From positions 4,480,001-4,544,000 of the forward strand of contig OZ245046.1 of the NCBI GenBank assembly GCA_965224245.1: a stretch of DNA of 64,000 bases, written 5' to 3'. Positions 7,242 to 64,000 of the stretch are shown here, piece after piece. A program made the translations under genes and the position numbers. This DNA is from Candidatus Eiseniibacteriota bacterium (GTDB lineage: Bacteria > Eisenbacteria > RBG-16-71-46 > CAZAMP01). The notes under the pieces were generated by a model that was not told the DNA's origin, made no database searches, and worked only from the letters and a program-made list of their open reading frames with translations. The first letter of the stretch is position 1. Every line of letters starts with the position of its first letter.

Positions 7242-10200
7242 CTACTTCAGCACCACGAGCTTCGTGCGGCTGCGGAAGCCGAACGACGTGGTCATCCGCG
7301 CCCAGTAGACACCGCTTCCCACTTCCTTGCCGGCATCGTCGAGTCCGTCCCAGGTCACGGCGTGGATCGCGGGATCCTGAGCGGACGACACCAGCGTGCG
7401 AACGCGGCGGCCGTTCACGTCGTACACCTTCAGTGTGACGAAGCCGGACTCTCCGAGCACGTAACGCAGCGTCGTCGTCGGATTGAACGGGTTGGGCGCC
7501 GCCGACACGAGGCGAGTGATCGCCAGAGCCCCGAGCCCGGGGGACGGCTCGACCGCGATGACGCAGTCCGGATCCTTCAGCGGGTCCACCGGCACGCCGA
7601 GCCACTCGAACACGTCGGCCACGCGCCGGGCGATCGCGGTGAGATCCTCGCACGCGCCGCCTCCGGGGCCGGATCCGGTCCAGCCGTCCGGTGTCGTGCG
7701 GAGCAGATCGAGCGAGAACGAGTCGGTCACGACGCGCTGGCTGCGTGACGCGTCCTGATCGTTGGACACCGAGGCGTACATCTCCGCGGCTCCGCCGGAG
7801 TCCTGGTCGATGTACTCGAGGTTGCCGACGCCCTCCGATTCGACGCCGATCACGTCGAACGGCGTGAGTGTCGAGCAGCCGGCGCGCGCCACCGACGCGT
7901 AGCTCTCGCCGCCGACGGGGAAGTGTCTCCCGCCGGACGGATCCAGCCTCACGCACGCGGATCCGTCGCCGCTCAGCGACTCGTAGTCGCCGCGGCGGAA
8001 GGCCTGAGCGTAGCGCTCGAGCAATCGGTTCGAGTACGGACGACCGGATCGCGAGAGAATGCGCGTGACGTGGTCACCGTTCAGCCACAGCCCGCGCGTG
8101 AGCGAGTCGTCGCAGCGCGGCGCCTCGACGTTCTGGATCAGGATCCGAGCGTCCTGATCGCGCAGGCCCTCCTGGGAGCGCGACCCGGTGTTGTAGAGGA
8201 TCGTGTTGTAGGCCAGCGACTGGAAGAGCGTCATCCCGTTGTCACCGAAGAGCTCGCGACCCAGCGGCGCCGGCACGTTGGAGCTGGCGGCGAGGTAGTC
8301 GTAGCGATCCCAGTTGTCGCGCGTTCGTCCCTCGACGTCGTCGGACGCGCCGAGAATCGGGCGCAGTCCTGCGTTCTCGATCACGTGCTGGCGGCCATCG
8401 TTTGCGGCGTCCACGTACAGGACGCAGGACGTGACCAGCGCGCCGCCCGGGCTCTCGCGCCATCCGGGCAGGACCTCGAACTCCAGCGCGCCATCGGTCG
8501 TGTCGGGAGCCACCCGGGTGCCGCCCGGACCCTCGGACGAGAAGAAGTACTCGACCGTGGTCCCGGGCGTGAACAGTCCGTCGGGCAGGATCTTGGGATC
8601 GTCGGCGTCCAGGACGCCGTCGTCGTGGACGTACGTCGCAAAGTGCTCGTCTCGCGGCGACGGAAGCGCCTCCATGCGGACGGCCAGGTAGTCGACGCGG
8701 TCTCCGGCGCCACCCACCGCGCCTCCGCGCGCATCGAGGAACGCGGCGTAGTCACCGTCGTCGATTGCCGGACCGGGATGCACCCGGAAGTTCAGGTACA
8801 CCTCGGCGCCGGGCTCGGAGATGACCACCGCGGAGTCGCCCATGTTCGCGTTCGTCTGGTCGCCGTCCAATCGGTTGTTGTCGAAGAACGAGTGCACGTC
8901 GGCGGTCGCCGTCGGTGACAGCGAGCTCTCCTGGGGAAAGACGTCTTGATAGAGGAGCTCGAGCGCGATCGCGGGGACATCGAGGCCGTCGCCCACCGCC
9001 GCGATGCGGATGTCGTCCCAGTACGGCCTCTCGTCGCGGCGCTCCGGATTACACGATCCGAAGTCGTCGCAGTTGACGAGCAGCTCGATCGCCACGGCCA
9101 GGGAGTCGGCGTCTCCGGGAATGTACGGGCTCACGTCCTCGATCACGCGGGCGCACTGATCGGGTAGGAACAGGAATCCCCCGACGCCGACGAAATCCCG
9201 GGACCAACCCACGACGCCGGTCGCCTCACAGGTCCACGGGTAGTACGAGATCCCGACCCGGTAGCCCACGCCGGCGTTGGCCCGTGCCCCGTACGTGTTC
9301 CACATCACACGCCAGTCGGATCGGCCCTCCACCGGCGAGCCGGGACCGACGTAGAGGGGAGGCGAACGCATCAGCTCGTGCTGTCCCTCCGGGTGAACCT
9401 CCGGCCCCACCCCGTCGAAGGCCGTCATCACGTACGCGTTCTCGGGGTCGGCGAGCGGACACGTGCACGGATCGTCCTCGATCGGTGGCAGATCGTCCAG
9501 GTGCGTCACGTCGAGGTACGTTCCGATCGGCGGGGCGGCGAAGAACGCCCACTCCTCGGGCCCCGACTCGAAGTCGTCGGTGTCGGACAGCCCGGTGCCC
9601 GCAATCGAGAAGTTGTCGAGCCCGAACGCGCCATAGACCGAGTTCAGGAAGCCCGAGAAGGAGTCGCGACCGTCCGAAAAGAGGGGATCGGACACGAACT
9701 CGAACACGACGTCGAAGTCGCCGGCCCCGATCGGCAGGTCGTCGACCTGGATCACGAGGCTCTCGTGCGCCGGCGACGACGGAGTGCCGATCGCCGTGCC
9801 CTCTTGAGTCGAGCCCGAGTACTCCGCCAGGGGATCGCTTCGCACTCCATCCACGACGGTGTAGAGCGAGGTGATGTCGAAGTCCGTCTCACTGTCGGTG
9901 AAGTAGTCGAACTCGATCGTCACGACACCGACGCCGGTGTACGAGAACGTCTTGGTCGCCGACACCGTCCACAGGTTGTCGTAGCCCATCCCGCCCGGCC
10001 AGCAATCCTCCGCGGCCTCGGCGTCGTGAGCGCCGACCCAGAGCGATCCATCGCCGTCGATGATGGCGCTGACGGGATCATCGACGAAGTCGATCGTCGT
10101 CCGGTGGCGGAAGAACGGGTTTCCGAACGCATCGACACCGCCGCCCGAGAGGTCTTCGCTCGTCCATCCCTGGAGCGTGCCGTCCTCGAAGTCCCAGACG

Positions 10201-10430
10201 CCGCCGACCTCGGCGAGGCCATCCGACCCCAGACCGCCGAACCAGATCGTGTCGGCCGCTCCGCGTGCGGTCCTTGCGGCGTGCTCGACCAGCCCGGTCT
10301 CGATGGAGACGGGGTGCGACAGCGTCGGCTCGATCCTCGGTCCGGCCACGGGCCGCCGCGCGGTGGTGAGCGAAGGCGCCGTGCACACCGCCATCACCGA
10401 GAGTGCCAAGATGATTCTCCGTGTCGTCAT
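7242..10430 (-). CDS. Large secreted protein with C-terminal FlgD-Ig/T9SS-CTD-like domain (paralogue 1, 1062 aa)
   Basis: Signal peptide; SD GGGAGG; family motifs GGVWDFEDGTLQGW, CWPGG.GY, DNNR.DGDQTNANMGDSA, SCVLYVDA, NWDRYDY; tail APNPFNPTT...VYDVNGRRVRTL...WDG.DD.G...SGVYWAR...KLVVLK. Confidence 0.88.
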   Translation of the reverse strand: MTTRRIILALSVMAVCTAPSLTTARRPVAGPRIEPTLSHPVSIETGLVEHAARTARGAADTIWFGGLGSDGLAEVGGVWDFEDGTLQGWTSEDLSGGGVDAFGNPFFRHRTTIDFVDDPVSAIIDGDGSLWVGAHDAEAAEDCWPGGMGYDNLWTVSATKTFSYTGVGVVTIEFDYFTDSETDFDITSLYTVVDGVRSDPLAEYSGSTQEGTAIGTPSSPAHESLVIQVDDLPIGAGDFDVVFEFVSDPLFSDGRDSFSGFLNSVYGAFGLDNFSIAGTGLSDTDDFESGPEEWAFFAAPPIGTYLDVTHLDDLPPIEDDPCTCPLADPENAYVMTAFDGVGPEVHPEGQHELMRSPPLYVGPGSPVEGRSDWRVMWNTYGARANAGVGYRVGISYYPWTCEATGVVGWSRDFVGVGGFLFLPDQCARVIEDVSPYIPGDADSLAVAIELLVNCDDFGSCNPERRDERPYWDDIRIAAVGDGLDVPAIALELLYQDVFPQESSLSPTATADVHSFFDNNRLDGDQTNANMGDSAVVISEPGAEVYLNFRVHPGPAIDDGDYAAFLDARGGAVGGAGDRVDYLAVRMEALPSPRDEHFATYVHDDGVLDADDPKILPDGLFTPGTTVEYFFSSEGPGGTRVAPDTTDGALEFEVLPGWRESPGGALVTSCVLYVDAANDGRQHVIENAGLRPILGASDDVEGRTRDNWDRYDYLAASSNVPAPLGRELFGDNGMTLFQSLAYNTILYNTGSRSQEGLRDQDARILIQNVEAPRCDDSLTRGLWLNGDHVTRILSRSGRPYSNRLLERYAQAFRRGDYESLSGDGSACVRLDPSGGRHFPVGGESYASVARAGCSTLTPFDVIGVESEGVGNLEYIDQDSGGAAEMYASVSNDQDASRSQRVVTDSFSLDLLRTTPDGWTGSGPGGGACEDLTAIARRVADVFEWLGVPVDPLKDPDCVIAVEPSPGLGALAITRLVSAAPNPFNPTTTLRYVLGESGFVTLKVYDVNGRRVRTLVSSAQDPAIHAVTWDGLDDAGKEVGSGVYWARMTTSFGFRSRTKLVVLK
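10161..10205 (-). repeat. Copy 1 of a ~40-nt coding repeat shared by the four paralogues
   Basis: TCTGGGACTTCGAGGACGG(C/T)ACGCTCCAGGG(A/C)TGG also occurs at ~21131-21172 (-), ~46981-47016 (+) and ~63700-63744 (+); encodes WDFEDGTLQGW. Confidence 0.85.
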
Positions 10431-10742
10431 GACCTGAATCCTCCCTTTTCATCCACTCGAGTGCGCCGAGCGCGTCGCGGCGGGAGGTCCGGACGCGAGG
10501 GGCGGGCCCGACAATGCTCAGAGACTCGATCGTGCGGGCACGGAACACGTGCCCGGAACGGTGAGGGATACCGAAGTCGAGCGCGGGGAGAACGCGCGCG
10601 GCGCGCGCGGGTCGGCGACGAGCAGAGAGCGGTCCTGCGGCGCGCAACGGCTGCGACGTGGAGAAGCGGGAGCCGACCATCGACGACGCACCTCCCAGAT
10701 CTCGTGTGCACACGCTCGACGTGTTCGGGAGGGACTATTCAG

Positions 10743-10772
10743 ACGCTATGTCCAAATGAGCAGTTCCGTCAA
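10743..10772 (-). promoter_or_regulatory. Candidate sigma70 promoter of paralogue 1
   Basis: Minus strand TTGACG-N18-TAGCGT; implies a 5' leader of about 300 nt. Confidence 0.45.
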
Positions 10773-10950: not shown

Positions 10951-13920
10951 GTGCACGCGATCAGCCACACCGTCCGGTGGACGATCCCCGCCATCGCGAT
11001 GACCGTCGGATCCGGGATCCTGGCCAGCGTGCCGGCATTCGTTCCGGCGCCCCAGAACGCCGAGTACGAGATCCCACTCCCGACGTTCGACGCTCGCACG
11101 TTCCGGACGCTCGAGACTCTCGCTGCCACTCGCACCGTGACCGAGGCGGCGGCGGCCAAGTTCGGCGGCGAGTGGCGCGTGTATTCCTGGAGCGCGTCGT
11201 CCGGGACGGCTCGCGATCTGTATGGCAGCGGTCTCGACCTGGGCGCGCCGATCACGACCGATGAGGCCGCCGACGCGGTCGCGCGAGGCGTCATCGCCGA
11301 CAATCCCGAGATCTTCGCCGCCGACGTCTCGAACCTGACGTTGGATGCGATCGCGCGCGGACGCGGCAAGGTCGGCGTGCACTACCGGCAGACCTACCTG
11401 GGCATCGAGGTTCTGGGATCCAAGATCTACACGATCTTCACCGAGGACGGCGGTCGGCTGTTCGTCATGGGCTCCAACTACCACGGAGACATCTCGCTCG
11501 ACCCGACACCCGCGCTCGCCCGGTCCGAGGCGATCGGCATCGCACGGGACGCCGTTCCGTTCGACCCGTCCACCGACGCCGTCGAGGACGAGGTCGACCT
11601 CCTGATCGTCCCCGTTCCGACGTCACCGTCGTCGGTGCAGCACCGACTGGCGTGGCGTGTCCGCGTCCAGACGCACGATCCGCTCGGGATCTGGGTCACG
11701 CACGTGGACGCTCACACCGGCGAGATCTTCTACCGCTACAACGACGTGCGTTTCTTCGACTACGAGGGTACGAGCGCTCTCGACACCCAGCCGATCACGT
11801 ACTGCGACGGGACCGAGCCCGCGGCCGCCAAGTACATGTACGTCGACGTCGACGGGCTGCCTCAGATCACGACCGGCGCCGACGGCACGTGGGCGGCCGG
11901 CGTGGACGACACGGTCGACCGCAGCGCGTCGGCGGCTCTGCAGGGTCCCTACGTCACCATTCAGAACTTCGCCGGTGACGAGGCGTCGTGGACGGGAACC
12001 GCAACCCCCGGTGAGCCGACCGAGATCTACTTCGACATCTCGAACTCGCAGGCCGACGAGCGCGACGTTTTCGACGGTGTGAACGACATCCACGACTTCT
12101 TCCAGGAGATCGACCCGACCTTCGCGTACGCGTCCGAGCAGATCGTCGCGAACGTCAGCATCGACGAGAACTGCAACGCGTTCTGGTTCGGCTCGATCAA
12201 CTTCTACCGGGAGGGCGGCGGCTGCGCGAACACCGGCGAGATCCAGGGCGTCGTCCAGCACGAGTACGGTCACGGCGTTCAGAGTGCGGTGATCGGCGGT
12301 CAAGGGAACGAGGGGCTCGGCGAAGGCAACGCCGACGTGCTCGCCAACATCATGACACGCGAGTCGATCATCGGGCGGGGCTTCTCGCTGGACGCTTGCT
12401 CCACCGGGCTTCGCAACTCGGACAACGATCTGCGCTACCCCGAGCACGTCGTCGGTCGAGAGGAGCACGACGCCGGCCGCGTCATCGCGGGCTTCCACTG
12501 GGACATGGCCGAGAATCTCAGGGCGAGCCTGGGTGAGGACGAGGGCTGGCGGTACATGGCCGAGCTCTGGCACTACGCGCGCAAGCTCCACCGGCCGGTG
12601 TATCAGCCGGATCAGGTTCTGGCCAACTTCATCGCGGACGACGACGACGGTGACCTCACCAACGGCACGCCGAACTACCTCGATCTCTGCGCCGCCGCCG
12701 AGCACCACGGGTTCTCGTGCCCGGCATCCTCCGGCGTTCACTTCTGGCGATCGGCGACCTCGAACACCGTGGACCGCACGGACCCGATCAGCATCGTCGT
12801 GGCGCCGTTCTCGACCGACGGCTCGATCGTTCCGAGCTCCGTCGAGATGCACTACCGGATCGACGGCGGATCGTTCATCGACGTCGGCATGACCCCCACC
12901 GGTGATCCGGACGAGTACGAGGCCTCGATCCCGGCTCAGCCGCTGGGGACGTTGATCGAGTACTGGGTGGAGGCCAGCGACGACCTCGGCTCCACCGGCA
13001 CCGGTCCCGCGGACGCGCCCGCGTCACTGCACGGATTCTACGTGGCGGCGGTGTACGACCCCTTCGAGGAGGATGACGCGGCCTGGACGGTCGGTTTGCC
13101 CGACGATGACGCCACGCGCGGGATCTGGGAGCGGGTCGATCCGATCGGGACCACCGCCCAGGCGTCCGTCGACGCGACGCCGTCCCCGGGAACCGATGCG
13201 TGGATCACCGGTCAGCACGAGGGACCCGAGGGAGGATGGCAGGGTCAGAGCCAGATCAACGACGGCAAGACCACGCTGATCAGCCCCGTGTACGACATCT
13301 CGGCCAGCACCCAGTTCGCCAGGCTGCAGTACCGGCGCTGGTTCTCGAACGACACGGGCCCGAATCCCGGCGAGGATCCGTGGATCGTCCGGGTGTCGAA
13401 CGACGGCGGCGAGACCTTCGTCGAGGTCGAGAACACCACCGTCAGTGATCGCTCGTGGCTCTTCGTCGAGCACGACCTCTGGGCGCTCTTCGGCGGCAGC
13501 GTCGGACAGATCCAGGTCCAGTTCGAGGCGAGCGACTATGCGCCCAGCGCCGTCGTCGAGGCCGGCGTGGACGACTTCACGATCATCGCCGACCTCGGCG
13601 AGGGCACGGTGGCGGTGGAGCCGACGCTGCCGGGGATCCCGCGGGCGGCGTATCTGGCCGAGGCCCGTCCGAACCCGTTCCGGCCGCGCACGACGATTCG
13701 CTATGGTCTGAACGACGAGGGGCCCGTCACGCTCGCCGTTTATGACGTCGGCGGCCGTCGCGTGCGCGGTCTCGTGAACGCGGTAGAGGGCGCGGGTCAC
13801 CATGCGGTGTCCTGGGACGGCCTCGACGACACCGGTGTTCGCGCACCGTCGGGCGTGTATTACGTGCGGGTGGAGGGTCCGGACCTCTCGGACACGAAGC
13901 GCGTCACGCTCGTTCGCTGA
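10951..13920 (+). CDS. Secreted zinc metalloprotease (thermolysin M4/fungalysin M36-like) with propeptide and FlgD-Ig/CTD tail
   Basis: SD AAGGAG + GTG; FTP/PepSY-like propeptide (YRQTYLGIEV, VDAHTGEI); NCNAFW; HEYGH; third ligand GLGEGNAD; DDDDGDLTNGTPN; tail PNPF...VYDVGGRRVR...SGVYYVR...KRVTLVR. Confidence 0.88.
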   Translation: MHAISHTVRWTIPAIAMTVGSGILASVPAFVPAPQNAEYEIPLPTFDARTFRTLETLAATRTVTEAAAAKFGGEWRVYSWSASSGTARDLYGSGLDLGAPITTDEAADAVARGVIADNPEIFAADVSNLTLDAIARGRGKVGVHYRQTYLGIEVLGSKIYTIFTEDGGRLFVMGSNYHGDISLDPTPALARSEAIGIARDAVPFDPSTDAVEDEVDLLIVPVPTSPSSVQHRLAWRVRVQTHDPLGIWVTHVDAHTGEIFYRYNDVRFFDYEGTSALDTQPITYCDGTEPAAAKYMYVDVDGLPQITTGADGTWAAGVDDTVDRSASAALQGPYVTIQNFAGDEASWTGTATPGEPTEIYFDISNSQADERDVFDGVNDIHDFFQEIDPTFAYASEQIVANVSIDENCNAFWFGSINFYREGGGCANTGEIQGVVQHEYGHGVQSAVIGGQGNEGLGEGNADVLANIMTRESIIGRGFSLDACSTGLRNSDNDLRYPEHVVGREEHDAGRVIAGFHWDMAENLRASLGEDEGWRYMAELWHYARKLHRPVYQPDQVLANFIADDDDGDLTNGTPNYLDLCAAAEHHGFSCPASSGVHFWRSATSNTVDRTDPISIVVAPFSTDGSIVPSSVEMHYRIDGGSFIDVGMTPTGDPDEYEASIPAQPLGTLIEYWVEASDDLGSTGTGPADAPASLHGFYVAAVYDPFEEDDAAWTVGLPDDDATRGIWERVDPIGTTAQASVDATPSPGTDAWITGQHEGPEGGWQGQSQINDGKTTLISPVYDISASTQFARLQYRRWFSNDTGPNPGEDPWIVRVSNDGGETFVEVENTTVSDRSWLFVEHDLWALFGGSVGQIQVQFEASDYAPSAVVEAGVDDFTIIADLGEGTVAVEPTLPGIPRAAYLAEARPNPFRPRTTIRYGLNDEGPVTLAVYDVGGRRVRGLVNAVEGAGHHAVSWDGLDDTGVRAPSGVYYVRVEGPDLSDTKRVTLVR

Positions 13921-13940
13921 TCGGTCGCGTTCGCATTCGG

Positions 13941-13972: not shown

Positions 13973-14127
13973 CGCCTGTGACGTCGGGGCGTGTGCCCCG
14001 TGCCGCATCTCGTGACCGCTCTCGCCGCTCCGCGTCCGGATCGTTGTGCAGCCGGGGGAAGTGCGGCAGAATGACCGGAGCGGCGCGTCCGAGCGCGCCG
14101 GACAACCCCTCCCCAACAGGTCGTCGC

Positions 14128-18061: not shown

Positions 18062-21000
18062 CTACTTCAGGACCACCATCTTCGTCGCGGCCGAGAACCC
18101 GGCCGACGTGGTCAGCCGTGCCCAGTAGACGCCGCTGGAGATGCGTTCACCGTCGTCGGTGAGACCGTCCCACTCGGCGGTGTACGCACCGACGGGATGC
18201 ACGCCGCTCACGAGCGTGCGAACGAGCCGCCCGGAGACGTCGTAGACGCCGAGCGTGACGAACGCCTCGGTGCCGACGGCGAACCGGACCCGCGTGCGCG
18301 GGTTGAACGGGTTCGGCGCGTTCTGGTAGAGCACCGTTCTCGCGATCGGCGTCGAGACGTCGTCCGCGCCCACGATGATGTGGTCGAACGGCTTCATCAC
18401 GTCCCCCGGGACCTCCATGAACTGGAAGACGTCCTGCATCCGCGTGAGAATCGCGTAGTCGGAGCATGGCTCCCCGTCCCCGGGCACCGATTCCGGGTCC
18501 CCGTCGCCGATCCAGCCCGGCGGCACCTGCCGCAGGAAGTGGAGCGAGAACGCGTCCACCACCGTCCGGTACCCGATGCTGGCCGGGGCCTGCTCGTTGG
18601 ACACGGCCGCGAACGGGGTCTGGATCTCGCCGGCGTCCTGATCCACGTAGATGAGGTCGCCGGCACCGTCGCCGGTCACTCCCAGCACGTCGAACCCCAG
18701 CAGGATGGGACAGCCGTTTCCCCGGAGACCATACGACGTTCCCGGCGGGGTCACGTCGCTGCCGGGGTCGGCGTCCAGCCGCACGCAGAACGACGAATCC
18801 GCCGGAAACGCGACCTCGCGATACGGCGTGCCGAACAGGAACGCACCGCAGAACTGATTCAAGAGCGCCTGGTTGAACGGTCGCGCCGGTCGGTCGAGGA
18901 TCGATGCGATTCCGTTGCCACTGAGCCAGAGTCCGCGGACGAAGTCCGACCCACCCGGACGCGCGACCGCCAGCCACGACGTGAGCAGGTTGGCGTCGCC
19001 GTTGCGGAGGCCCTCCACTCTATTCGTTCCGGTGTTGTAGAGCACCGTGCGGTAGATCAACGACTGGTACTTCGTCATGCCGTTGTCACCGGACGTCTCG
19101 CGCGCCATCGGGGCGGGGATGTTGGCGTTGGCGGCCAGGTAGTCGTATCGATCCCAGTTGTCGTGCACCACGCCGTCGGGGTCGGTTGACGTTCCCAGGA
19201 TCGTACGCAGCCCCTCGTCCTGGATCGGCTCCTGCGCACCCACGTTGTACGCGTCCACGTACAGCACGCACGACGAGAGGAACGGCTCATCGCCCGCCGG
19301 CGCCGTGCTGCCACCGGAGATGATCCCCGGCAGGAGGTCGAACTCCAGGAAGAACCCGCCGGTCGTGTCGGGGACGACCCGTGTGTCGAGCATTCCCATG
19401 TACCGGGAGGAGAAGAAGTACTCCACCGAGCTTCCGGGGGTCAGGACGCCGTCCGGGATGACCTTGAGCCCGTCCGACACGCGATAGGTCGCGTACACGC
19501 CCGACGTGGTGGTCTCGATGACCTCCACCTCCAGGAACGTCGGATCGACCCTGGCGTCGCCGGCCCCGCCCGCGGCCCCCCCGTTCGGGACCAGGACCTC
19601 GTTGACCCCGTCCGACGTCATCGCCGGTCCCGGGTACAGGCGGAAGTTCATGAACACCTGCGGCGTGGGTCCCGGGGCCAGTCCGCTCTCGGAGATGACG
19701 GTCGCCGAGTCGCCCATGTTCGCGTTCGTCTGATCCCCATCGGCGCGGTTGTTGTCGTAGAAGGAGTAGACGTCGCAGGCCGCGGTCGGGAGCAACGAGT
19801 TCTCGGCCGGGTAGGCGTCCTGGTACAGGAGCTCCAGCGACAGCTGAGGCGCGTCGATCGCATCGCCCGCCAGAGCGAACGTGATGTTGTCCCAGTACGG
19901 CGACTGGTTGGTCTGATCGGGTCCGGTGCAGTCCGCGGTGCCGAAGTCGTCGCAGTCCCCGAGGAGCTCGAACACGATCCGCAGGGAGTCCACGCCGTTC
20001 GCGTGTGCGCTCGTCATGAACTCGGAGTTGTCGACACGCAGCGTCGCGCACCTCGAACCCCCGAGCGTCTGGAAGATGTAGCCCCCGTCCCCGGCCGGCT
20101 CGATCGTCCAGCCCACCTGGTCGGTCTCCGGGCACGTCCACGGCCAGTAGTCCATCAGCGCGCGATAGCCGACGCCGTTGGATACCGGGAGATCCTCCCA
20201 GACGTCCCACTCGATGAGGTACACCGGACGGTCGTCGTCCGGTCCGTCGATGTACGCGGGGTTCGATCCGATGAGCTCGTGCTGCTTCTGGGGATGCGGG
20301 AACCCGCCGCTGATCGACCCGTCCCAGTCCGAGGCGATCATGACGTAGTCGTTGTCCGGGTCCTGTGTGATCGGACACACGCACGGGTCGGGAATGGGAT
20401 CGAGATCGCCGAGCGCCACGACCTGTAGGTACGTGCCGATCGCCGGATCGGTGTCGAACTCCCAGCCCTCGGCGTCGATCTCGAAGTCGTCCGCGTCGGA
20501 GAGCCCGACGCCGTTGATGACGAAGTCGTCCATCCCGAACGGGCCGAAGTACGAGTTCAGGAACCCGGAGAACGAGTCGAGGCCGTCGGAGTACAGCGGG
20601 TCGGAATCGAAGTTGAAGATGATCTGGAACGGCTCCCCGGCCCCCGGCGGCAGAAGCGAGACGTCGATCACGATGATGTCGGTGGCCGGTGACGTCGGCG
20701 ATCCGATGGCCGTGCCTTCCTCGTTCGCTCCCGAGTAGCCCCAGCCCTCAGGCGTGGACCACGCCGAGCCGTTCAGGGGCGGGGAACGCACGCCGGCCAC
20801 GTCCGTGTACACGTAGGTGTAGTCGAATTGCGTCTCGCAATCGGTGAAGTAGTCGAACTGGATCGTGACGGTCGAGCTCCCGCCGTACAGGAAGGTCTTC
20901 CGTGCGCTCACCCCCCAGCCGTTGTCATAGCCCAGTCCGCCCGGCCAGCAGCCGGCCGCGGCCTCCTCGTCGTTGGCGCCGGCCCAGAGCGAGCCCACGC

Positions 21001-21391
21001 CGTTCATGACCGGAATCGTGGTCGCCCCGGAGAAGTCGGCCGCCGTGATGCGCCGGAAGTACGTGTCTCCTCCGACCGACGGATCGCCGGGCGGGTCGGC
21101 CTGGCCGACGTCGGTCAGATCCCTGGAGGACCAGCCCTGGAGCGTGCCGTCCTCGAAGTCCCAGATGCCGCCGTCGAAGGCCAGTCCATCGACCCCCTCG
21201 CCTCCGAAGAGCACCGTGTCGGCGGTTCCGCGCGCGACAGCGGACGCCGTCACCGGCGGGGCGTCGAGCGCCGCCCGCTCGTCGCCGACCGGCAGAACCT
21301 GCCGGATCTCGAGCTTGCCGCCCGCGAGCACCGTCGTGGTCAAGCCGGCGACGGCCAGGGAGGCGAGCAGCAGTGTGCGTATCGTACTCAT
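18062..21391 (-). CDS. Large secreted protein with FlgD-Ig/CTD tail (paralogue 2, 1109 aa)
   Basis: Start MSTIRTLLLASLAVAG at 21391 after SD GAGGAG; same collinear motif series as paralogue 1; tail QNAPNPFNP...SGVYWAR...KMVVLK. Confidence 0.88.
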   Translation of the reverse strand: MSTIRTLLLASLAVAGLTTTVLAGGKLEIRQVLPVGDERAALDAPPVTASAVARGTADTVLFGGEGVDGLAFDGGIWDFEDGTLQGWSSRDLTDVGQADPPGDPSVGGDTYFRRITAADFSGATTIPVMNGVGSLWAGANDEEAAAGCWPGGLGYDNGWGVSARKTFLYGGSSTVTIQFDYFTDCETQFDYTYVYTDVAGVRSPPLNGSAWSTPEGWGYSGANEEGTAIGSPTSPATDIIVIDVSLLPPGAGEPFQIIFNFDSDPLYSDGLDSFSGFLNSYFGPFGMDDFVINGVGLSDADDFEIDAEGWEFDTDPAIGTYLQVVALGDLDPIPDPCVCPITQDPDNDYVMIASDWDGSISGGFPHPQKQHELIGSNPAYIDGPDDDRPVYLIEWDVWEDLPVSNGVGYRALMDYWPWTCPETDQVGWTIEPAGDGGYIFQTLGGSRCATLRVDNSEFMTSAHANGVDSLRIVFELLGDCDDFGTADCTGPDQTNQSPYWDNITFALAGDAIDAPQLSLELLYQDAYPAENSLLPTAACDVYSFYDNNRADGDQTNANMGDSATVISESGLAPGPTPQVFMNFRLYPGPAMTSDGVNEVLVPNGGAAGGAGDARVDPTFLEVEVIETTTSGVYATYRVSDGLKVIPDGVLTPGSSVEYFFSSRYMGMLDTRVVPDTTGGFFLEFDLLPGIISGGSTAPAGDEPFLSSCVLYVDAYNVGAQEPIQDEGLRTILGTSTDPDGVVHDNWDRYDYLAANANIPAPMARETSGDNGMTKYQSLIYRTVLYNTGTNRVEGLRNGDANLLTSWLAVARPGGSDFVRGLWLSGNGIASILDRPARPFNQALLNQFCGAFLFGTPYREVAFPADSSFCVRLDADPGSDVTPPGTSYGLRGNGCPILLGFDVLGVTGDGAGDLIYVDQDAGEIQTPFAAVSNEQAPASIGYRTVVDAFSLHFLRQVPPGWIGDGDPESVPGDGEPCSDYAILTRMQDVFQFMEVPGDVMKPFDHIIVGADDVSTPIARTVLYQNAPNPFNPRTRVRFAVGTEAFVTLGVYDVSGRLVRTLVSGVHPVGAYTAEWDGLTDDGERISSGVYWARLTTSAGFSAATKMVVLK

Positions 21392-46761: not shown

Positions 46762-49700
46762 ATGTTCGATCGAGCAATCACTCGTGCCGCGCTGCTGGTC
46801 GCGGCGAGCACGGTCGCTCTCCCGAGCGGCGTCTCCGCGAGCGACGAGCCGCGTCCTACGGTTGCGAAGCCGACCCTCACACACCGAGACGATGAACTCG
46901 CAGGCCGCCAGGACGCCAGCCGGCAAGCGGTCGTGTGGCTGGGCGGTGTGGGCGCCGACGGGCAGGCGCAGGTCGGCGGAATCTGGGACTTCGAGGACGG
47001 TACGCTCCAGGGATGGCAGTCGGTCGATCTCTCCGCCGAGGCAGCGTACTTCCGTCGCATCACGCCGGCCGACGCAATCGCACACGGCGATCCGACCGAC
47101 CCCACGATGGCCGGCGCCGGATCGATGTGGGTGGGCGCCCACCAGGACGAAGCAGAGATGATGTGCTGGCCCCGCGGTATGGGCTACGGCGATTCCTGGG
47201 CCATGTGGATGACGAAGACCTTCACGTACGGCGGTACCGGCACCATCACGCTGAGCTTCGACTACTTCACTGACAGCGAGACCCAGTTCGACTACACGTA
47301 CGTGTACACGGAAGTCGCCGGGATCCGCTCGCTACCTCTGAACACCTCGGTGTGGTCGAGCCCTCAGGGCTGGGGCTACTCCGGTGCGATCGACGACGGC
47401 ACCGCGATCGGAAGTCCGTCGGCCCCGGCCACCGACACCATCGTGATCGACGCCTCGCATCTTCCAGCCAACCCAGGCGATCCGTTTACCATCGCGTTCA
47501 AGTTCGACTCCGACTACGTCTACTCGGACGAGCTGAACCGATACTCGGCGTTTTTGAACTCCCGGTTCGGCGCGTTTGGCGTCGACGACATCGGGGTCGT
47601 GGGCGTGGGACTCTCCGACGTGAGCACCTTCGAGATGGACGTGGATGGATGGAGCACGTTCAGCGAACCCCCGATTGGCACCTACCTCGACGTGGACATG
47701 CTCGGGAGTCTTCCACCGATCGGAGGGACGTGCCTCGATCCGCCCACGAACCACGTGATGGTTGCGATCGACGGCAGCGGTACCTACGCACACCCTCAGC
47801 GCCAGCACGAGGAGCTACTGTCGCCGCCCGCGTACGTTGGATCGGGGTCCGGATTCGAGAGCTTCGAGAGTATCGTGGCCCGCTTCACGACATGGGAGGA
47901 GCTGCCTCTTCCTGAGGGAGTCGGCTACCAGGTGGGCGCACGCTACCATCCCTGGACGTGCCCCGAGACCGGCGTCGTGAGCTGGAGCATCGTCGCGAGA
48001 GGTCCTCTCGGTTACTTCTTCACCTTCCCCGGTCTGTGTCAGACGTGGGACGTCGACCTGGGGCCCTACGTGCCGGCGGGCGTCGACTCGATCCGGCTGG
48101 TCTTCGAGCTTCTCAGCGACACCGAGGACTTCTTCTCTGGGTCGGGGCCCGCCGTGACCGACCCATCGCCGCTCTGGGACGACATCCAGCTCGGGGTCGA
48201 CTTCGGAAGCGCGACGTTCTTCGCGCGCGGCTCCTACTACGCCGGCACCACCGGCATCTGGGGATTCGACAGCGGGAACCAGCTCCATGACGACGGGCTC
48301 CATGGCGACGACGCGGCCGGCGATGGGATCTTCGGCGCGTTCGTGGTGACCGACCAGCCACCCGGGCAGCACGAGTTCAAGATCGCGACCGGCGACTGGA
48401 GCCAGGCCTACCCGACGAACCCCTCCTATCCGACCGCGAATGCAATCCTCTACACCGAGGCATCCGACGATCTGGTGCACTTCCGGCTGGACACGAACGT
48501 GCTCTCGGACTGGCAGCCGGCGGCGAACGCGGTCTCGTGCGATCGCTTCGCGCCGACGGGCTCGGTGTTCGAGGTGATCGGCAGCGCGCCGGAGCTGGGG
48601 TCCTGGGTGACCGGCGTTCCCGCCACTCTGGACGGGGATACGTGGTACGCCGACATCGTGGTCGCCTCGCCCGGCCCCGTCGAGTACAAGTTCCGCGTGG
48701 CGGGAACCTGGGACGTCTGCAACGTCGGGATCCACTACAACATGTTCATCGGCGACAACTTCTCCGCCACCATCCCGAGCGCGAGCGCCCTGATGCGGTT
48801 TGAGTTCAACACGATCGACGGGCGGTCGCGCGCCAGAGAGCTGAACGCCAGCTCGCTGGTGCTCGAGCCGGATCTCCTCTATCAGGACATCTATCCCTCC
48901 GAGAACTCACTCGTGCCGAGTGCCACGGCGGAGATGCACAGCTACCTGGATCTCACGGCCGGCGATGGAGACGACTTGAACGCCCAGCTCGGCGACTCGG
49001 TCACCGTCGCGGGAACCGATGACGTCGGTGTGGAGGTATATCTCAACTTCCGTGTCTATCCCGGACCCGCCATGGACCTGAACGGGAATGGAGACTACTC
49101 GGACGATACCGGCTGGTGGACTGATCCCCGCTTCGAGCCCGGCAGCGATGCGTTGGCCCCGTCGTGGGCGGCAGCTCGGCTGGACACGGCGATGACCGGA
49201 GAGGTCGTGACCCCGGGGATGTTCGCCACGTACTTCTGGCCCGACGGCTCGAACGGCTACGGATCGGGCAATCCCGACAAGGTGCTGCCGGACGATTTCT
49301 TCACGCCGGGAACCACCGTCGAGTACTTCTTCTCGACGAACTACGCGTCCAGCCCTGCCGATCAGAAGATCTCGCCCGATACGACGGCCGGAGAGCCCCT
49401 CGAGTTGGAGGTCCTGCCCGGCTACGTTCGAGTGGGAAGCGACATCCTGACTTCGTGCGTGCTGTACGTGGATGCGGCCGAAGAGGGTGCCGAGGAGCTG
49501 ATCGAGGACTACGGACTGCGTCCCTGGTGCGGGTCCGGCTTCGACTACACCGGCCTCGAACACGACCGCTGGGATCGATACGACTACCAGGAGGCTGCGT
49601 CCACGATCGTGGCCCCGATGGCGCGCCAGGTTCTCGGCAACAACGGCATGACGCCTTATCAATCGATGGCGTACCGGTACATTTTCTACAGCACCGGTGC

Positions 49701-50622
49701 TCGCCGGGAGCGAGCGCTTCGGAACGGGGACGCGGATCTCCTGGCCAGCTTCCTGACGAACGGGAGCCTCGGCCGAGACAGCTTCGTGAAGGGGCTCTGG
49801 CTGAGCGGGGACGGAGCGGGAGACATTCTCGTCTCCCAGGGCGACTCACACGCACAGGCGTTGCTCGAGCATTTTTTCCAGGCTCAGCTCATCGGCCACC
49901 TCATCGACGTGCCTCCTTGCTGCATCCGGCTGGATCCGACCCCGACCCGGCACTTCCCGCCCTCTCTGTCGCCGTACAGCGCGGCCGATCACGGCACGCC
50001 GCCCGACGAGCGGATCTTCGACGTGGTGGGCGCGGTGGGGGACGGGGTCGGCGACATCACCTACGTGGATCAGACCAGTGGGGAGATACAGACCAACTTC
50101 GCGTCGGTGTCGAACGAGCAGACCTCTTACCACACGGTGATCGACGGGTTCTCACTGACCCAGCTTCGCGAGGTTCCCGGGGGATGGACGGGCTGTACGT
50201 GCCCCCCGATCGGGAACGCGATCACGATCCGGGTGGCCGACGTCTTCGATTGGTTCGGCGCGCCTGCCGGTTCGGCGGTGATGAAGGACGTGGATCCACT
50301 CCTGATCGACGTGGACGAGACCGCCTCGAGCGAGTCGCCCCGTCGCACGCGGCTCCTTCGTGGTGCGCCGAATCCGTTCAACCCCACGACCTCCGTGCGC
50401 TACGAGATCCACGAGCGCACCGAGGTCACGATCCAGGTGCTGGACGTCCGAGGCCGATACGTATCGACGCTGACGAGCACCGCGTACGATCCCGGCCGGT
50501 ACGAGCTGAGCTGGGACGGTCGGAATGCGATCGGTGACGCGCTGGCCAGTGGCGTCTACTGGGTGCGGATGACCACGTCGAGCGGGTATCGTGGCGCGAC
50601 GCGCGTGATCTTGCTGAAGTGA
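46762..50622 (+). CDS. Large secreted protein with FlgD-Ig/CTD tail and an internal inserted cassette (paralogue 3, 1286 aa)
   Basis: Signal peptide after SD AAGAGG; same family motifs; insertion of about 210 aa at ~48205-48850; tail APNPFNPTT...SGVYWVR...RVILLK. Confidence 0.87.
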   Translation: MFDRAITRAALLVAASTVALPSGVSASDEPRPTVAKPTLTHRDDELAGRQDASRQAVVWLGGVGADGQAQVGGIWDFEDGTLQGWQSVDLSAEAAYFRRITPADAIAHGDPTDPTMAGAGSMWVGAHQDEAEMMCWPRGMGYGDSWAMWMTKTFTYGGTGTITLSFDYFTDSETQFDYTYVYTEVAGIRSLPLNTSVWSSPQGWGYSGAIDDGTAIGSPSAPATDTIVIDASHLPANPGDPFTIAFKFDSDYVYSDELNRYSAFLNSRFGAFGVDDIGVVGVGLSDVSTFEMDVDGWSTFSEPPIGTYLDVDMLGSLPPIGGTCLDPPTNHVMVAIDGSGTYAHPQRQHEELLSPPAYVGSGSGFESFESIVARFTTWEELPLPEGVGYQVGARYHPWTCPETGVVSWSIVARGPLGYFFTFPGLCQTWDVDLGPYVPAGVDSIRLVFELLSDTEDFFSGSGPAVTDPSPLWDDIQLGVDFGSATFFARGSYYAGTTGIWGFDSGNQLHDDGLHGDDAAGDGIFGAFVVTDQPPGQHEFKIATGDWSQAYPTNPSYPTANAILYTEASDDLVHFRLDTNVLSDWQPAANAVSCDRFAPTGSVFEVIGSAPELGSWVTGVPATLDGDTWYADIVVASPGPVEYKFRVAGTWDVCNVGIHYNMFIGDNFSATIPSASALMRFEFNTIDGRSRARELNASSLVLEPDLLYQDIYPSENSLVPSATAEMHSYLDLTAGDGDDLNAQLGDSVTVAGTDDVGVEVYLNFRVYPGPAMDLNGNGDYSDDTGWWTDPRFEPGSDALAPSWAAARLDTAMTGEVVTPGMFATYFWPDGSNGYGSGNPDKVLPDDFFTPGTTVEYFFSTNYASSPADQKISPDTTAGEPLELEVLPGYVRVGSDILTSCVLYVDAAEEGAEELIEDYGLRPWCGSGFDYTGLEHDRWDRYDYQEAASTIVAPMARQVLGNNGMTPYQSMAYRYIFYSTGARRERALRNGDADLLASFLTNGSLGRDSFVKGLWLSGDGAGDILVSQGDSHAQALLEHFFQAQLIGHLIDVPPCCIRLDPTPTRHFPPSLSPYSAADHGTPPDERIFDVVGAVGDGVGDITYVDQTSGEIQTNFASVSNEQTSYHTVIDGFSLTQLREVPGGWTGCTCPPIGNAITIRVADVFDWFGAPAGSAVMKDVDPLLIDVDETASSESPRRTRLLRGAPNPFNPTTSVRYEIHERTEVTIQVLDVRGRYVSTLTSTAYDPGRYELSWDGRNAIGDALASGVYWVRMTTSSGYRGATRVILLK

Positions 50623-58584: not shown

Positions 58585-58596
58585 GGAGGTCGCGCG

Positions 58597-62396: not shown

Positions 62397-62512
62397 GGGT
62401 GACCATGGGCGCTCCTCGGCCAATGCCAAGAACATCAACTGGTTCTGACGCCGCCGGCCGATAACGGCTGATGTACCAGGATTGCCCACCTCAGACGTCC
62501 AGAGGACCCTCG

Positions 62513-63271
62513 ATGTCCACATTCCCCCTCGGGAACGGCCTCACGCTGGTCGCCGCAGCCATGACTCACATCGGACGCGTCCGGAAGCTGAACCAGGATT
62601 CGATCGGGATCCTGGACACCGGCGACGCGGACCGCGGCTTTCTCCTGACCGTGGCCGACGGCATGGGAGGAGCCGTCGGGGGTGAGATCGCGAGCCGCAT
62701 GACCGTGGATGCCGTCCATCACGTGTTCGTCAGTGCCGACGCACGCGCCGACAACGCGCTGGCCGAGGCCGTGGCCGCCGCGAACGATTGCGTCTTCTCG
62801 CGCTCGCAGCGGGAGACCGAGCTCAACGGCATGGGCACGACGTGCACGACGCTGGCGATCACGAGCGGGGACTTCTACATCGCGCACGTCGGCGACAGCC
62901 GCGCGTACGTGTGTGACGACTCCGGCTTCCGGCAGGTCACGAACGATCACTCGCTGGCCGAGGAGATCCGCCGTCAGTCCGGTGGCGGCGTCGCCTCGCC
63001 GGCGGTGCCGAGGAACATCCTCTCCCGCTGCCTGGGCGTCGAGCCCGAGGTCGAGGTGGACATCGTCTCCGGCCGCGGCCGGATCGCCGAGGGGCTCAAG
63101 TTCCTGATGTGCTCGGACGGCCTGAGTGGACTCGTGTCATCCGAGGAGATGCACGAGGCGGTTCGCCGCCAGCCGCCAGACGTCGCCTGCCGCGACCTGA
63201 TCCACCAGGCGCTGGAGCGCGGCGCGCCGGACAACGTGAGCGTGATCGTCGCCGCCATCGTAGCCGGCTGA
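62513..63271 (+). CDS. PP2C/PPM-family Ser/Thr protein phosphatase
   Basis: THIGRVRKLNQD, VADGMGG, MGTT, HVGDSRAY, T.DHS, CSDGL, DNVS. Confidence 0.93.
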   Translation: MSTFPLGNGLTLVAAAMTHIGRVRKLNQDSIGILDTGDADRGFLLTVADGMGGAVGGEIASRMTVDAVHHVFVSADARADNALAEAVAAANDCVFSRSQRETELNGMGTTCTTLAITSGDFYIAHVGDSRAYVCDDSGFRQVTNDHSLAEEIRRQSGGGVASPAVPRNILSRCLGVEPEVEVDIVSGRGRIAEGLKFLMCSDGLSGLVSSEEMHEAVRRQPPDVACRDLIHQALERGAPDNVSVIVAAIVAG

Positions 63272-63365: not shown

Positions 63366-63414
63366 GATATCCTTAAATAAGATCAAATCTGATTTGATCA
63401 CTCAGAGAGATATC
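63366..63414. promoter_or_regulatory. 49-bp dyad-symmetric AT-rich site upstream of paralogue 4
   Basis: GATATC-N9-GATCAAATC-T-GATTTGATC-N9-GATATC, all symmetric about position 63390. Confidence 0.65.
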
Positions 63415-63468
63415 CAGGAAGCCTGCTTCCTCCCCGCAGGCTCCGGGCCGGCCACACGGGAGGGCCAC

Positions 63469-64000
63469 ATGTCTTGCTCCGCGATGCTCGCCGCCGTGCT
63501 CACGGCCGCCGTGATCACGACCCTGTCCACTCCGGCGACCGCGCGCCCCACGGACGCCCCCCACGACGCCCGAGTAGTCCACGCCGGCGCCGACCACGGC
63601 GACCACGACGAGCCGCTCGCGCGACGCTCGAGCGCCCGCACGAGCGGCCTCGACACCGTGTACTTCGGGGGCCGGGGTCCGGACGGACGGGCGATCCAGG
63701 GCGGCGTCTGGGACTTCGAGGACGGCACGCTCCAGGGCTGGACGTCGATCGACGTATCCGACGTGTCGCAGGTGGACCCGCCGGGCGATCCGTCGGTCGG
63801 CGGACCCGGCGCGTCGTACTTCCGGCGGATCACGGCAGCCGACTTCACGTCGGACCCGCCGTTGATTCACGGCGTCGGCTCGGTCTGGGTCGGCGCGAAC
63901 GACGAGGAGGCCGCGGCCCTGTGCTGGCCCGGCGGCCTCGGGTACGGCAACGACTGGGTCATGGGCGCACGAAAGACGTTCACGTACGGCGGCTCGGGCG
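63469..64000 (+). CDS. Large secreted protein, paralogue 4 (3'-truncated; absent from the ORF track)
   Basis: SD GGGAGG, ATG at 63469; manual translation MSCSAMLAAVLTAAVITTLSTPATA...DTVYFGGRGPDGRAIQGGVWDFEDGTLQGWTSID...YFRRITAADF...CWPGGLGYGNDW...KTFTYGGSG, open to the window end. Confidence 0.9.
   Translation, partial: MSCSAMLAAVLTAAVITTLSTPATARPTDAPHDARVVHAGADHGDHDEPLARRSSARTSGLDTVYFGGRGPDGRAIQGGVWDFEDGTLQGWTSIDVSDVSQVDPPGDPSVGGPGASYFRRITAADFTSDPPLIHGVGSVWVGANDEEAAALCWPGGLGYGNDWVMGARKTFTYGGSG

Follow-up and report, generated by a model that had tools for sequence, protein, structure and literature searches.

The four large genes found in the window, i.e. the whole stretch of 64,000 nucleotides that was analysed, belong to a new family. 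The family is real and unnamed, and consists of large, predicted exported proteins assembled from known folds. Since known sugar- or protein-binding folds are combined with a type IX tail, the members are most likely surface binding proteins and not fundamentally new. The explanation we prefer, with chances that we put at about even, is that they are surface-displayed binding proteins secreted by a type IX-like pathway. The host is an uncultivated, soil-type member of Eisenbacteria with an assembly of 6.9 Mb.

Four paralogous genes

The original prediction described a family of four genes on both strands with shared motifs, and its coordinates and strands were confirmed. Copy 1 (7242..10430, minus strand, stop codon included) is complete with 1062 aa (P0001) as judged from the ORF and its translation, and its full-length AF2 model has a pLDDT of 82.2. 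Copy 2 (18062..21391, minus strand, 1109 aa) and copy 3 (46762..50622, plus strand, 1286 aa) are also complete; translations, profile matches and a motif check gave both the architecture of copy 1, with an insert added in copy 3. Copy 4 (63469..64000, plus strand) is cut by the window end after its first 177 aa. The gene continues to genome position C1:4546816, and two further family copies follow in tandem directly beyond the window. The four paralogs are 47-50% identical over about 1,000 aa. Compared with copy 1, which was used as the reference, the other window copies have identities of 50, 47 and 47%, and a genome search with copy 1 as query found the other copies at E-values of 1e-247 to 1e-298, far beyond chance.

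Regular expressions were used for the motif check. 'GG.WDFEDGTLQGW' and 'CWP.G.GY' were found in 4/4 copies and the remaining 14 predicted motifs in 3/3 complete copies, so that all 16 motifs are present. For one of them, the literal 'GVGY...PWTC' was found in 0/3 complete copies, as its two parts are in fact 7 residues apart, and 'GVGY.{3,8}PWTC' was found in 3/3. The copies are, as predicted, acidic (D+E 11.9-15.3% versus K+R 4.7-6.7%), Gly/Asp-rich (Gly 10.5-14.7%) and Cys-containing (12-14 Cys per complete copy). The start codons originally chosen agree better with signal-peptide-like N-termini than those of the longest reading frames.

The insert of copy 3 covers 216 residues (479-694; 48196..48843, plus strand) between the head and the middle domain. 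It carries a choice-of-anchor X motif (NF041940, 39.6 bits against a cut-off of 25, residues 508-541) and weak CBM20/X25-like signals (PF00686 at 14.5 bits and PF22058 at 16.6 bits, each below its own cut-off).

Family size, distribution and selection

The genome holds 10 full-length family copies and 7 partial or divergent loci. The predicted expansion beyond the window is therefore real, but 'many more' genome-wide is an overstatement for 17 loci out of the 410 reading frames (at least 200 aa) that carry the tail, in 366 cases at the very C-terminus. The ten paralogs have diverged to 47-87% identity, and the copies are either solitary or in tandem with one another. The family comprises 629 representative clusters. 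Of 121 genomes sampled from the phylum, 35 were found to have it, often as tandem copies. In whole families of the same class it was not found (0/45 and 0/26 sampled genomes), and it is thus not the general envelope layer of the group.

Pfam and NCBIfam models matched the tail alone, leaving the core of about 900 aa without a match, and the source names were absent or 'hypothetical protein' wherever seen. This is what had been expected of proteins annotated by their tail domain only. The proposed modularity also held, as the head and the C-terminal half are each found alone or with other partners.

The family is under purifying selection, with dN/dS of 0.27-0.30 in the three closest pairs and below 0.45 in every domain. 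No internal stops were found in the genomic copies, and from the intact frames together with the low dN/dS the genes appear to be in use. Conservation is fairly even along the paralogs, without a hypervariable region and without hypervariable head loops. The diversification with variable loops that was originally proposed did not find support here, and the even conservation is unlike what would be predicted for a repertoire of diversified binders.

C-terminal tail and probable type IX secretion

Secretion had been predicted, and it agrees with a signal-peptide-like start, a T9SS-type tail and the presence of PorU, PorV and SprA in the genome. The signal-peptide-like N-terminus of copy 1, approximately residues 1-24 (10359..10430, minus strand), was read from the translation as a charged start followed by a hydrophobic run; the full-length AF2 model has a pLDDT below 50 over residues 1-59. 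The C-terminal sorting domain, residues 975-1062 (7245..7508, minus strand), is FlgD_ig / T9SS type-A-like and reaches 35.5 bits with PF13860 (cut-off 27) and 28 bits with TIGR04183 (cut-off 23). TIGR04183 is sub-threshold in copies 2 and 3 (21.8 and 22.3 bits versus 23), and no copy reaches the cut-off of PF18962. In the family, FlgD_ig matches the tail of 39/39 members, and Por_Secre_tail that of 31/39 at E<=1. Against the PDB, the family profile matched the PorU CTD (6za2, E 2.1e-6) and the C-terminal domain of PorZ (E 0.0076).

The genomic PorU scores 469.6 bits (cut-off 420) and is adjoined by PorV (37.2 bits, cut-off 27), and SprA_N was found at 80.7 bits inside a frame of 2363 aa. No match to GldL or GldM, the motor proteins of T9SS, was detected in the genome, a non-detection whose meaning is limited by the controls; the pathway may differ from canonical T9SS.

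T9SS type A cargo (TIGR04183 / PF18962), such as the gingipains of Porphyromonas gingivalis, resembles the family in combining a signal peptide with a beta-sandwich sorting domain at the C-terminus. Furthermore, the head matches the cleaved-adhesin domain K1 of Kgp (4itc, Z 11.0, rmsd 3.2, 153 aligned), and the nearest Atlas leads are Cleaved_Adhesin clusters, with scores of 0.87 that are below the 0.9 mark. In contrast to the gingipains, the family is hosted by the phylum Eisenbacteria, has neither a protease domain nor a PF07675 sequence match, and has a tail with higher scores for FlgD_ig than for Por_Secre_tail. T9SS substrates are described as combining a Sec signal peptide with a C-terminal domain, and type-A cargo as being covalently linked to anionic LPS at the surface (PMC9143113, PMC12618676, PMC10202324). 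By likeness to this cargo, we infer that the proteins would be synthesised with a Sec-type signal peptide, would cross the outer membrane via the C-terminal sorting domain, and would probably stay at the cell surface, as is the case for type-A-tail cargo in Bacteroidota.

The N-terminal head

AF2 and the fold search show the head of copy 1, residues 60-480 (8991..10253, minus strand), as two jelly-roll beta-sandwiches forming a single rigid unit, and a separate model of residues 56-485 reached a pLDDT of 94.8 and a pTM of 0.91. VIA-align returned about 45 CBM (CBM4/22/61/16), MAM, Eph and gingipain cleaved-adhesin domains at Z 9-12.7, and Foldseek found the tandem CBM22 4xup at E 2.8e-7. The core is not a new fold, since AF2 and the fold search give MAM/CBM-like jelly rolls and a GATase1-like domain, all of them known folds.

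The best structural match of the head is that of its inner MAM-like jelly roll, residues 117-298 (9537..10082, minus strand), with residues 482-632 of 4yu5_A, InhA2 (Z 14.2-14.4, rmsd 2.7, 147 aligned). From alignment ranges and secondary structure, this jelly roll seems to lie nested within a CBM4/22-like sandwich (Z about 11). A MAM-like domain inserted into another sandwich is also described for InhA2 of Bacillus anthracis (PDB 4yu5; PF20773, InhA-like_MAM). In a sequence comparison by hhalign, the inner jelly roll matched a PF20773 protein encoded in this genome with a probability of 82% (E 1e-5, 52 columns), and PF20773 gives 24.3 bits with a distant member of the family in the genome. 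Within the family PF20773 is below cut-off, with 2/39 members at E 0.032 and 0/10 paralogs at E<=0.1. The InhA peptidases have an M6 catalytic domain, whereas the family has none; NF052323 (T9SS-dependent M6-like inactivated metalloprotease) matched the tail alone, at 24-29.5 bits versus a cut-off of 600.

The outer jelly roll is similar to type B CBMs of CBM4, CBM22, CBM61 and CBM16 (2xom Z 11.6, 4bj0 Z 11.5, 2zew Z 11.2). No CBM Pfam family reaches threshold, CBM_17_28 being seen in 3/39 members at E 0.13. Unlike the CBMs, the head is joined to no recognised glycosidase in the 32 scanned relatives. Its partners there are beta-helix, DUF11/DUF7619/SdrD_B, CARDB, NHL, RCC1, FG-GAP/ASPIC and LDL-receptor-B modules. 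None of the head-bearing proteins among them has a recognised catalytic domain, and the sole peptidase-family signal was a weak, partial Peptidase_C39_2 match in one protein without a complete head. The head begins within the first 130 residues in 144/149 head-bearing proteins and is therefore far from the tail.

The structural matches of the head (InhA2 MAM-like, CBM, MAM, Eph and cleaved-adhesin) are all binding modules. Most likely, the head would be the working part of the protein and bind an extracellular polymer or protein.

Middle and GATase1-like domains

A middle beta-sandwich of copy 1, residues 485-660 (8451..8978, minus strand), was recognised from the model secondary structure and has no assigned fold, in a region barely covered by the fold search. 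It is followed by a class-I glutamine-amidotransferase-like alpha/beta domain, residues 665-950 (7581..8438, minus strand), found by AF2 and the fold search. This domain matches 3rht_A (Z 16.1, rmsd 3.0, 206 aligned), 2gk3_A (Z 15.2), GH42 middle domains (Z 13-15), 5xb7_A (Z 15.1), ThuA-like proteins (Z 12-13.2) and the IFT52 GIFT domain 5fms (Z 12.6), as well as the OST subunit 6s7o_G at Z 12.8 but with an rmsd of 15.4. A shared fold alone does not show function.

The fold is thus shared with GATase1-like systems that have no amidotransferase activity (the uncharacterised 3rht and 2gk3, the GH42 middle domain, ThuA-like proteins, and the GIFT domains of GldG/IFT52/OST48/Wbp1). A sequence relation to them is undetectable, with hhalign probabilities of 0.1% against the GldG-like protein of the window and 0.05% for the family against a PF07090 protein of the same genome. 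In GH42-type glycosidases the GATase1-like middle domain is non-catalytic and stands behind a TIM barrel, whereas here it stands behind jelly-roll modules of an exported-type protein. For GIFT domains, a sugar-binding role is proposed in the cited excerpt (PMC7226087).

The family alignment has no conserved Cys at the nucleophile elbow, whose position was inferred from alignment ranges and secondary structure; the consensus after strand 779-784 is GLWLSG(N/D)G. In agreement with the original prediction, neither Pfam/NCBIfam profiles nor the fold search revealed a catalytic domain or catalytic triad in the family. The middle sandwich and the cysteine-less GATase1-like domain may form a stalk, or a platform for oligomerisation or for additional binding. 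The C-terminal half was also found without the head and with its own N-terminus in four proteins (P0062, P0063, P0169, P0184), and it should therefore have a role of its own.

Alternative explanations

That role might be catalysis. The proteins would then be secreted enzymes of a new family, with the middle sandwich and GATase1-like domain as the catalytic unit, carboxylates or metal replacing the lost cysteine, for example in action on polysaccharide, and the jelly-roll head targeting the substrate. In the C-terminal half, at least 90% of about 120-138 representatives share the polar residues D496, D532, D617, E650, D708, R709, D711, R725, Q737, Y741 and D760, a possible sign of an active site. 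By the model secondary structure, several of these would be situated where the active site of the GATase1 fold usually lies, either at the C-terminal end of a parallel strand or in the loop that joins strands 2 and 3. Long collinear motif blocks and a dN/dS near 0.3 are more enzyme-like than expected of a fast-evolving adhesin, the C-terminal half stands alone as an exported-type protein, and many structural neighbours of the GATase1-like domain are parts of glycoside hydrolases. However, the domain is non-catalytic in those neighbours, and there is no TIM barrel here; no catalytic family matched by sequence, and the inferred elbow is without a conserved nucleophile. The invariant residues are mostly Asp, Gly, Pro, Trp and Cys, as would fit an acidic extracellular protein with calcium sites, turns, a packed core and disulfides, and the other partners of the head are stalk-like or propeller modules rather than enzymes. 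We consider an enzyme possible but distinctly less probable than binding proteins.

The binding-type fold of the head would also suit substrate catchers that pass nutrients to a TonB-dependent or other outer-membrane transporter. This is improbable, as no barrel or transporter gene adjoins the three complete window copies on the same strand. The genes next to these copies are unrelated and of the housekeeping type (a DUF4340 protein, a Ser/Thr kinase, an FMN reductase, a PP2C phosphatase and a DctP-family protein), and the copies occur solitary or in tandem with each other.

A slightly poorer candidate still is the S-layer or scaffold of the original prediction, in which copies would self-assemble, e.g. 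via the GATase1-like domain, into an outer-membrane lattice or coat: the protein is large, acidic, predicted exported and multi-copy, and its fold matches include both GH42-type structures (GH42 enzymes are trimeric, and GATase1-like middle domains take part in oligomerisation) and MAM-type structures (oligomerisation or homophilic contacts in meprins and RPTPmu), but no S-layer family or SLH domain was matched by Pfam/NCBIfam profiles, ten paralogs at 47-87% identity are unusual for a single lattice former, 17 of 410 tail-bearing frames belong to the family, and it was not found in whole families of the class. If the members are surface-displayed binding proteins, as we prefer, the 10 or more diverged paralogs would provide the cell with a set of related binders.

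Family members in the window and in the genome

The four paralogous genes that were predicted to encode large exported proteins lie on the window at the positions and on the strands originally assigned to them. On the genome, the window corresponds to C1:4480001-4544000. Copy 1 (7242-10430, minus strand, 1062 aa) and copy 2 (18062-21391, minus strand, 1109 aa) are complete, as is copy 3 (46762-50622, plus strand, 1286 aa), which carries a 216-residue insert. Copy 4 starts at 63469 on the plus strand, and only its first 177 aa lie inside the window. The copies align collinearly, with identities to copy 1 of 50, 47 and 47%. Searching with regular expressions recovered the two N-terminal motifs in 4/4 copies and the remaining 14 motifs in 3/3 complete copies. 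The motif written as 'GVGY...PWTC' is present, but its actual spacing is 7 residues and the literal form matches none of the copies. The composition is acidic, Gly-rich and Cys-containing as described, with 11.9-15.3% D+E, 4.7-6.7% K+R and 12-14 Cys in the complete copies.

All residue numbers below refer to the copy 1 protein unless stated otherwise. We divide it into a head (residues 60-480), a middle domain (485-660), a GATase1-like domain (665-950) and a tail (975-1062). The middle and GATase1-like domains are together called the C-terminal half, and the approximately 900 residues ahead of the tail the core. The insert of copy 3 is located between the head and the middle domain; a choice-of-anchor X motif is recognised in it (39.6 bits, cut-off 25), and signals for CBM20/X25 stay below threshold.

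The expectation that the family extends beyond the window was borne out. The genome holds 17 family loci, a number on which the copy 1 search and an HMM scan of every frame of 200 aa or longer concurred, and ten of these loci are full-length. Four of the ten are those of the window, two follow directly behind copy 4 in tandem, and the others are found elsewhere on the same contig (C1), as a tandem pair at C1:2.337-2.344 Mb and as single genes at 3.49 and 5.20 Mb. Paralog identity ranges from 47 to 87%, the closest pairs being tandem neighbours. Two further loci consist of the head and part of the C-terminal half, and one is a distant family member. Two near-identical head-plus-tail genes (623-aa frames) are situated on two small contigs, at C3:2338-4209 and C11:43718-45589, pointing to recent duplication or to a repeated element. 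At C1:6226351-6230081 (plus strand) the head is split over two overlapping frames, covering profile positions 4-128 and 181-451; either a frameshift in this copy or an error of assembly could account for the split. The 989-aa frame at 10951-13920 (plus strand) of the window was considered as a member and rejected, being divergent from copy 1 and outside the family in the HMM scan. It has the same sorting tail (FlgD_ig 36.9 bits) and no further Pfam domain.

The three pairs of paralogs that are closest to each other gave dN/dS values (NG86) of 0.27, 0.30 and 0.29, with every domain below 0.45. The ten paralogs are rather evenly conserved along their length (0.49-0.88 per 20-residue block), with minima in low-confidence linkers. 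From their sequences, all copies therefore look functional. A diversified repertoire with variable loops, as had been proposed, does not agree with these values, and no hypervariable region was found.

Export and sorting tail

On inspection of the translations, the four copies and the other paralogs open with charged residues and continue into a hydrophobic stretch, resembling a Sec signal peptide. At the other end, FlgD_ig (PF13860) scores 35.5-38.9 bits in the copies (cut-off 27) and is above cut-off in 39/39 relatives. Por_Secre_tail (PF18962) is below cut-off in all copies and reaches E<=1 in 31/39 relatives. TIGR04183 gives 28 bits for copy 1, and 21.8 and 22.3 bits for copies 2 and 3 (cut-off 23). 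Sequence searches of the PDB with family profiles returned tail relatives only: the PorU CTD (6za2, E 2.1e-6), the PorZ CTD (5m11, E 0.0076) and RgpB, the latter only at E 0.26-0.58.

The genome encodes PorU (469.6 bits, cut-off 420), adjoined by PorV (37.2 bits, cut-off 27), the pair being located at C1:2570492-2575325. SprA_N was also found (80.7 bits, cut-off 27). GldM (TIGR03517, PF12081) and GldL (TIGR03513) were not found in the genome, in a search where the TIGRFAM controls matched nowhere either. T9SS substrates are described as having both a Sec signal and a C-terminal domain, with anionic LPS as the anchor of type-A cargo (PMC12618676, PMC9143113, PMC10202324). By analogy we infer that the family proteins would share the fate of such cargo.

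The sorting tail occurs on 410 frames of at least 200 aa (median 791 aa, longest 5025 aa), in 366 of them at the very C-terminus. This is an unusually large exported set for a 6.9-Mb genome. The presence of four copies within 64 kb is therefore partly due to the enormous number of tail-bearing genes.

Database status

As had been anticipated, the family is annotated by its tail alone, the only shared part that Pfam and NCBIfam recognise. Among the 39 relatives the faint recurring Pfam matches were InhA-like_MAM (2/39, E 0.032) and CBM_17_28 (3/39, E 0.13). In a word-indexed search the core matched 44 clusters, every one unnamed or 'hypothetical protein' and one labelled Candidatus Eisenbacteria; ten more clusters that were looked up were likewise unnamed or 'hypothetical'. 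In an exhaustive profile search the number of representative proteins was 629 at E<=1e-3, falling to 427 at E<=1e-10 and to 236 at E<=1e-30. Searching genome contigs for related loci yielded two, one of them titled Candidatus Eisenbacteria. Matches of both halves in the ESM Atlas had scores of 0.81-0.87, all under the 0.9 mark, and are used as leads only.

NF052323, describing a T9SS-dependent M6-like inactivated metalloprotease, has no full-length match in the family. It scores 24-29.5 bits against a cut-off of 600, with the alignment confined to the tail (model positions ~960-1037 of 1043).

The family itself is unnamed, its core of about 900 aa is without a database model, and no paper on it was found. 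We also found no publication on Eisenbacteria together with type IX secretion, on the FlgD Ig-like tail together with T9SS, or on the immune inhibitor A MAM domain together with VEG; among the Eisenbacteria papers listed, none deals with surface proteins as far as title and opening lines of the abstract show. What is already known is the fold of each assigned part and the general kind of protein, T9SS-type cargo with jelly-roll modules. The original suggestion of a functionally undescribed core stands with respect to database models. The core is not a new fold, as AF2 models and fold search resolve it into MAM/CBM-like jelly rolls and a GATase1-like domain.

Fold of the head

The full-length AF2 model, built from a 39-sequence alignment, had a pLDDT of 82.2 and a pTM of 0.57, and the model of the head only (residues 56-485, 99-sequence alignment) a pLDDT of 94.8 and a pTM of 0.91. 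The full-length model was aligned with 48,161 PDB representatives. Foldseek on the whole protein found no PDB match beyond generic multi-sandwich structures (GH2 enzymes, reelin; TM 0.10-0.17).

Residues 117-298 form a MAM-type jelly roll. The best match was InhA2 (4yu5_A, residues 482-632; Z 14.2-14.4, rmsd 2.7, 147 aligned), with other MAM matches to 8yt7 (Z 11.3), 5l73 (Z 11.0) and 2c9a (Z 10.2). The next matches were about 45 CBM4/22/61/16, MAM, Eph and gingipain cleaved-adhesin domains at Z 9-12.7, whose aligned ranges run from the first strands to approximately residue 480 and yet cover only 130-170 residues. Because of these long but sparsely covered ranges, the model suggests a nested topology, in which the N-terminal strands and residues 300-480 would make up an additional outer jelly roll that carries the MAM-like domain as an insertion. 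Foldseek on the head gave the same kind of match (tandem CBM22, E 2.8e-7; InhA2, E 7.8e-7).

The MAM jelly-roll fold is shared with the InhA-like MAM family PF20773, whereas the sequence score stays below the gathering score. None of the 10 paralogs matched PF20773 at E<=0.1 in a six-frame genome search, and one distant family member reached 24.3 bits (cut-off 26.9). Comparing the family with a genuine PF20773 protein from this genome by hhalign gave a probability of 82% (E 1e-5, 52 columns); this was computed without the tail, since only the common tail was aligned when it was included. Likeness to CBM4/9, CBM22 and similar modules is in fold only (Z ~11), with no CBM model above threshold. 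The HPxxQHE motif was considered as a metal site and dropped: H346 and P347 are invariant in 39 close members and fall below 90% in the wider family.

The C-terminal half

The middle domain is beta-rich in the model. Residues 665-950 have a GATase1 alpha/beta fold, matched in the full-length model over residues 669-947, with 3rht_A as a match at Z 16.1 (rmsd 3.0, 206 aligned) and more than 15 GATase1 or GATase1-like chains at Z 11-16. Next to 3rht_A stands 2gk3_A with Z 15.2; GH42 middle domains aligned at Z 13-15, ThuA-like proteins at Z 12-13.2 and the GIFT domain of IFT52 at Z 12.6. For GIFT-type domains a sugar-binding role has been proposed (PMC7226087). No sequence link was obtained with hhalign to the GldG-like protein of the window (probability 0.1%) or to a PF07090 GATase1_like protein of the genome (probability 0.05%). 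Complex prediction for a trimer of residues 660-955 returned a score of 0.00 (mark 0.42), a value that says nothing for or against oligomerisation.

The fold is common to the family and the active class I glutamine amidotransferases; however, the catalytic Cys of the latter is without a counterpart at the inferred nucleophile elbow. By model secondary structure, the fourth parallel strand is 779-784, followed by the turn GLWLSG(N/D)G. Only G785 is conserved there at 90% or more, and no conserved Cys of a Cys-His-Glu triad was found at the elbow, as placed by secondary structure. The earlier statement that no catalytic motif was recognised is in keeping with this result. Asp, Gly, Pro, Trp and Cys predominate among the positions kept at 90% or more (117-171 representatives). 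The conserved polar residues that stand out in the C-terminal half are D708-R709-x-D711, R725, Q737, Y741 and D760.

Modularity and distribution

The proposed modularity was confirmed, as head and C-terminal half occur together and each also apart. Within a set of 187 proteins, both parts are present in 99; 53 have just the head, 21 just the C-terminal half, and the other 14 neither in complete form. Slightly different criteria gave 22 proteins with the C-terminal half and no complete head. The majority are fragments truncated at the N-terminus; four have an N-terminus of their own, and in five the front part is a different one. In 144/149 head-bearing proteins the head begins no later than residue 130, and one of the five exceptions is the over-long translation of copy 2. 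In the 32 relatives scanned, the partners of the head were beta-helix, DUF11/DUF7619/SdrD_B, CARDB, NHL, RCC1, FG-GAP/ASPIC and LDL-receptor-B domains, and no recognised catalytic domain was present on head-bearing proteins. The sole peptidase-family signal was a weak partial Peptidase_C39_2 on one protein without a complete head.

Matches at E<=1e-20 were found in 23/41 sampled relative genomes, and at E<=1e-40 in 35/121 sampled genomes of the phylum, both counts being samples in which kin are not independent. Matches are complete in some families (7/7, 8/8, 9/9, 3/3, 2/2) and zero in others (0/45, 0/26, 0/5, 0/3). Matching genomes usually have several copies, often in tandem.

Possible function

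The reading that best accounts for the data, to which we give about even odds, is an exported, probably surface-held protein with the distal head as a binding module. The binding reading is based on the fold class, the N-terminal position of the head and the stalk-like nature of its alternative partners. The proteins would leave the cell by a T9SS-type route and then probably be retained on the surface, where the distal head would bind and the C-terminal half might serve as a platform or offer another binding site.

The strongest alternative, though rather unlikely in our judgement, is a new enzyme. It is favoured by the conserved polar cluster and by the independent existence of the C-terminal half; because of these conserved residues an enzymatic reading stays alive. 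A specific form of it, which we hold to be improbable, takes the C-terminal half as an unrecognised carboxylate- or metal-dependent catalytic module, whose substrate would be an extracellular polymer and which the nested MAM-in-CBM head would direct. If true, this would be a new enzyme family, expanded by Eisenbacteria to at least 10 copies per genome. That the proteins are transporter-linked catchers seems very unlikely. The S-layer or scaffold protein of the original prediction is the least probable reading; no S-layer or SLH family was matched in Pfam and NCBIfam.

Eisenbacteria are common in soils and sediments, yet uncultivated. About 400 genes of this genome are spent on proteins with a type IX-like sorting tail, and with its 629 representative clusters in public data the family is among the larger groups without a name in that exported set. 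The domain make-up provides a handle for annotation, namely new domain models for two parts, the head and the C-terminal half, and it directs experiments towards a defined question, binder or enzyme. The understanding of secretion or adhesion is unchanged by the finding.

Gene neighbourhood

No gene recurs beside the copies, and their neighbours in the window are unrelated housekeeping genes. Directly beside copy 1, a gliding-type ABC transporter set occupies 2119-7079 (plus strand), comprising an ABC ATPase (2119-3519), a GldG-like ABC_transp_aux/DUF7088 protein (4258-6015) and a DUF4340 protein (6015-7079). The GldG-like protein has a GIFT/GATase1-like domain of its own. A 1034-aa Ser/Thr protein kinase with an AAA_16 ATPase and TPR repeats (13978-17082, plus strand) is placed between the frame 10951-13920 and copy 2, and a PP2C phosphatase (62471-63271) just ahead of copy 4. 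At 28408-29598 (minus strand) the window encodes a prokaryotic glutamate-receptor-like channel, with SBP_bac_3 interrupted by the pore (Lig_chan, Ion_trans_2). The housekeeping genes between the copies include a methylmalonyl-CoA mutase cluster with MeaB (29654-34778, plus strand) and an AddAB-type helicase-nuclease pair (37001-44277, plus strand).
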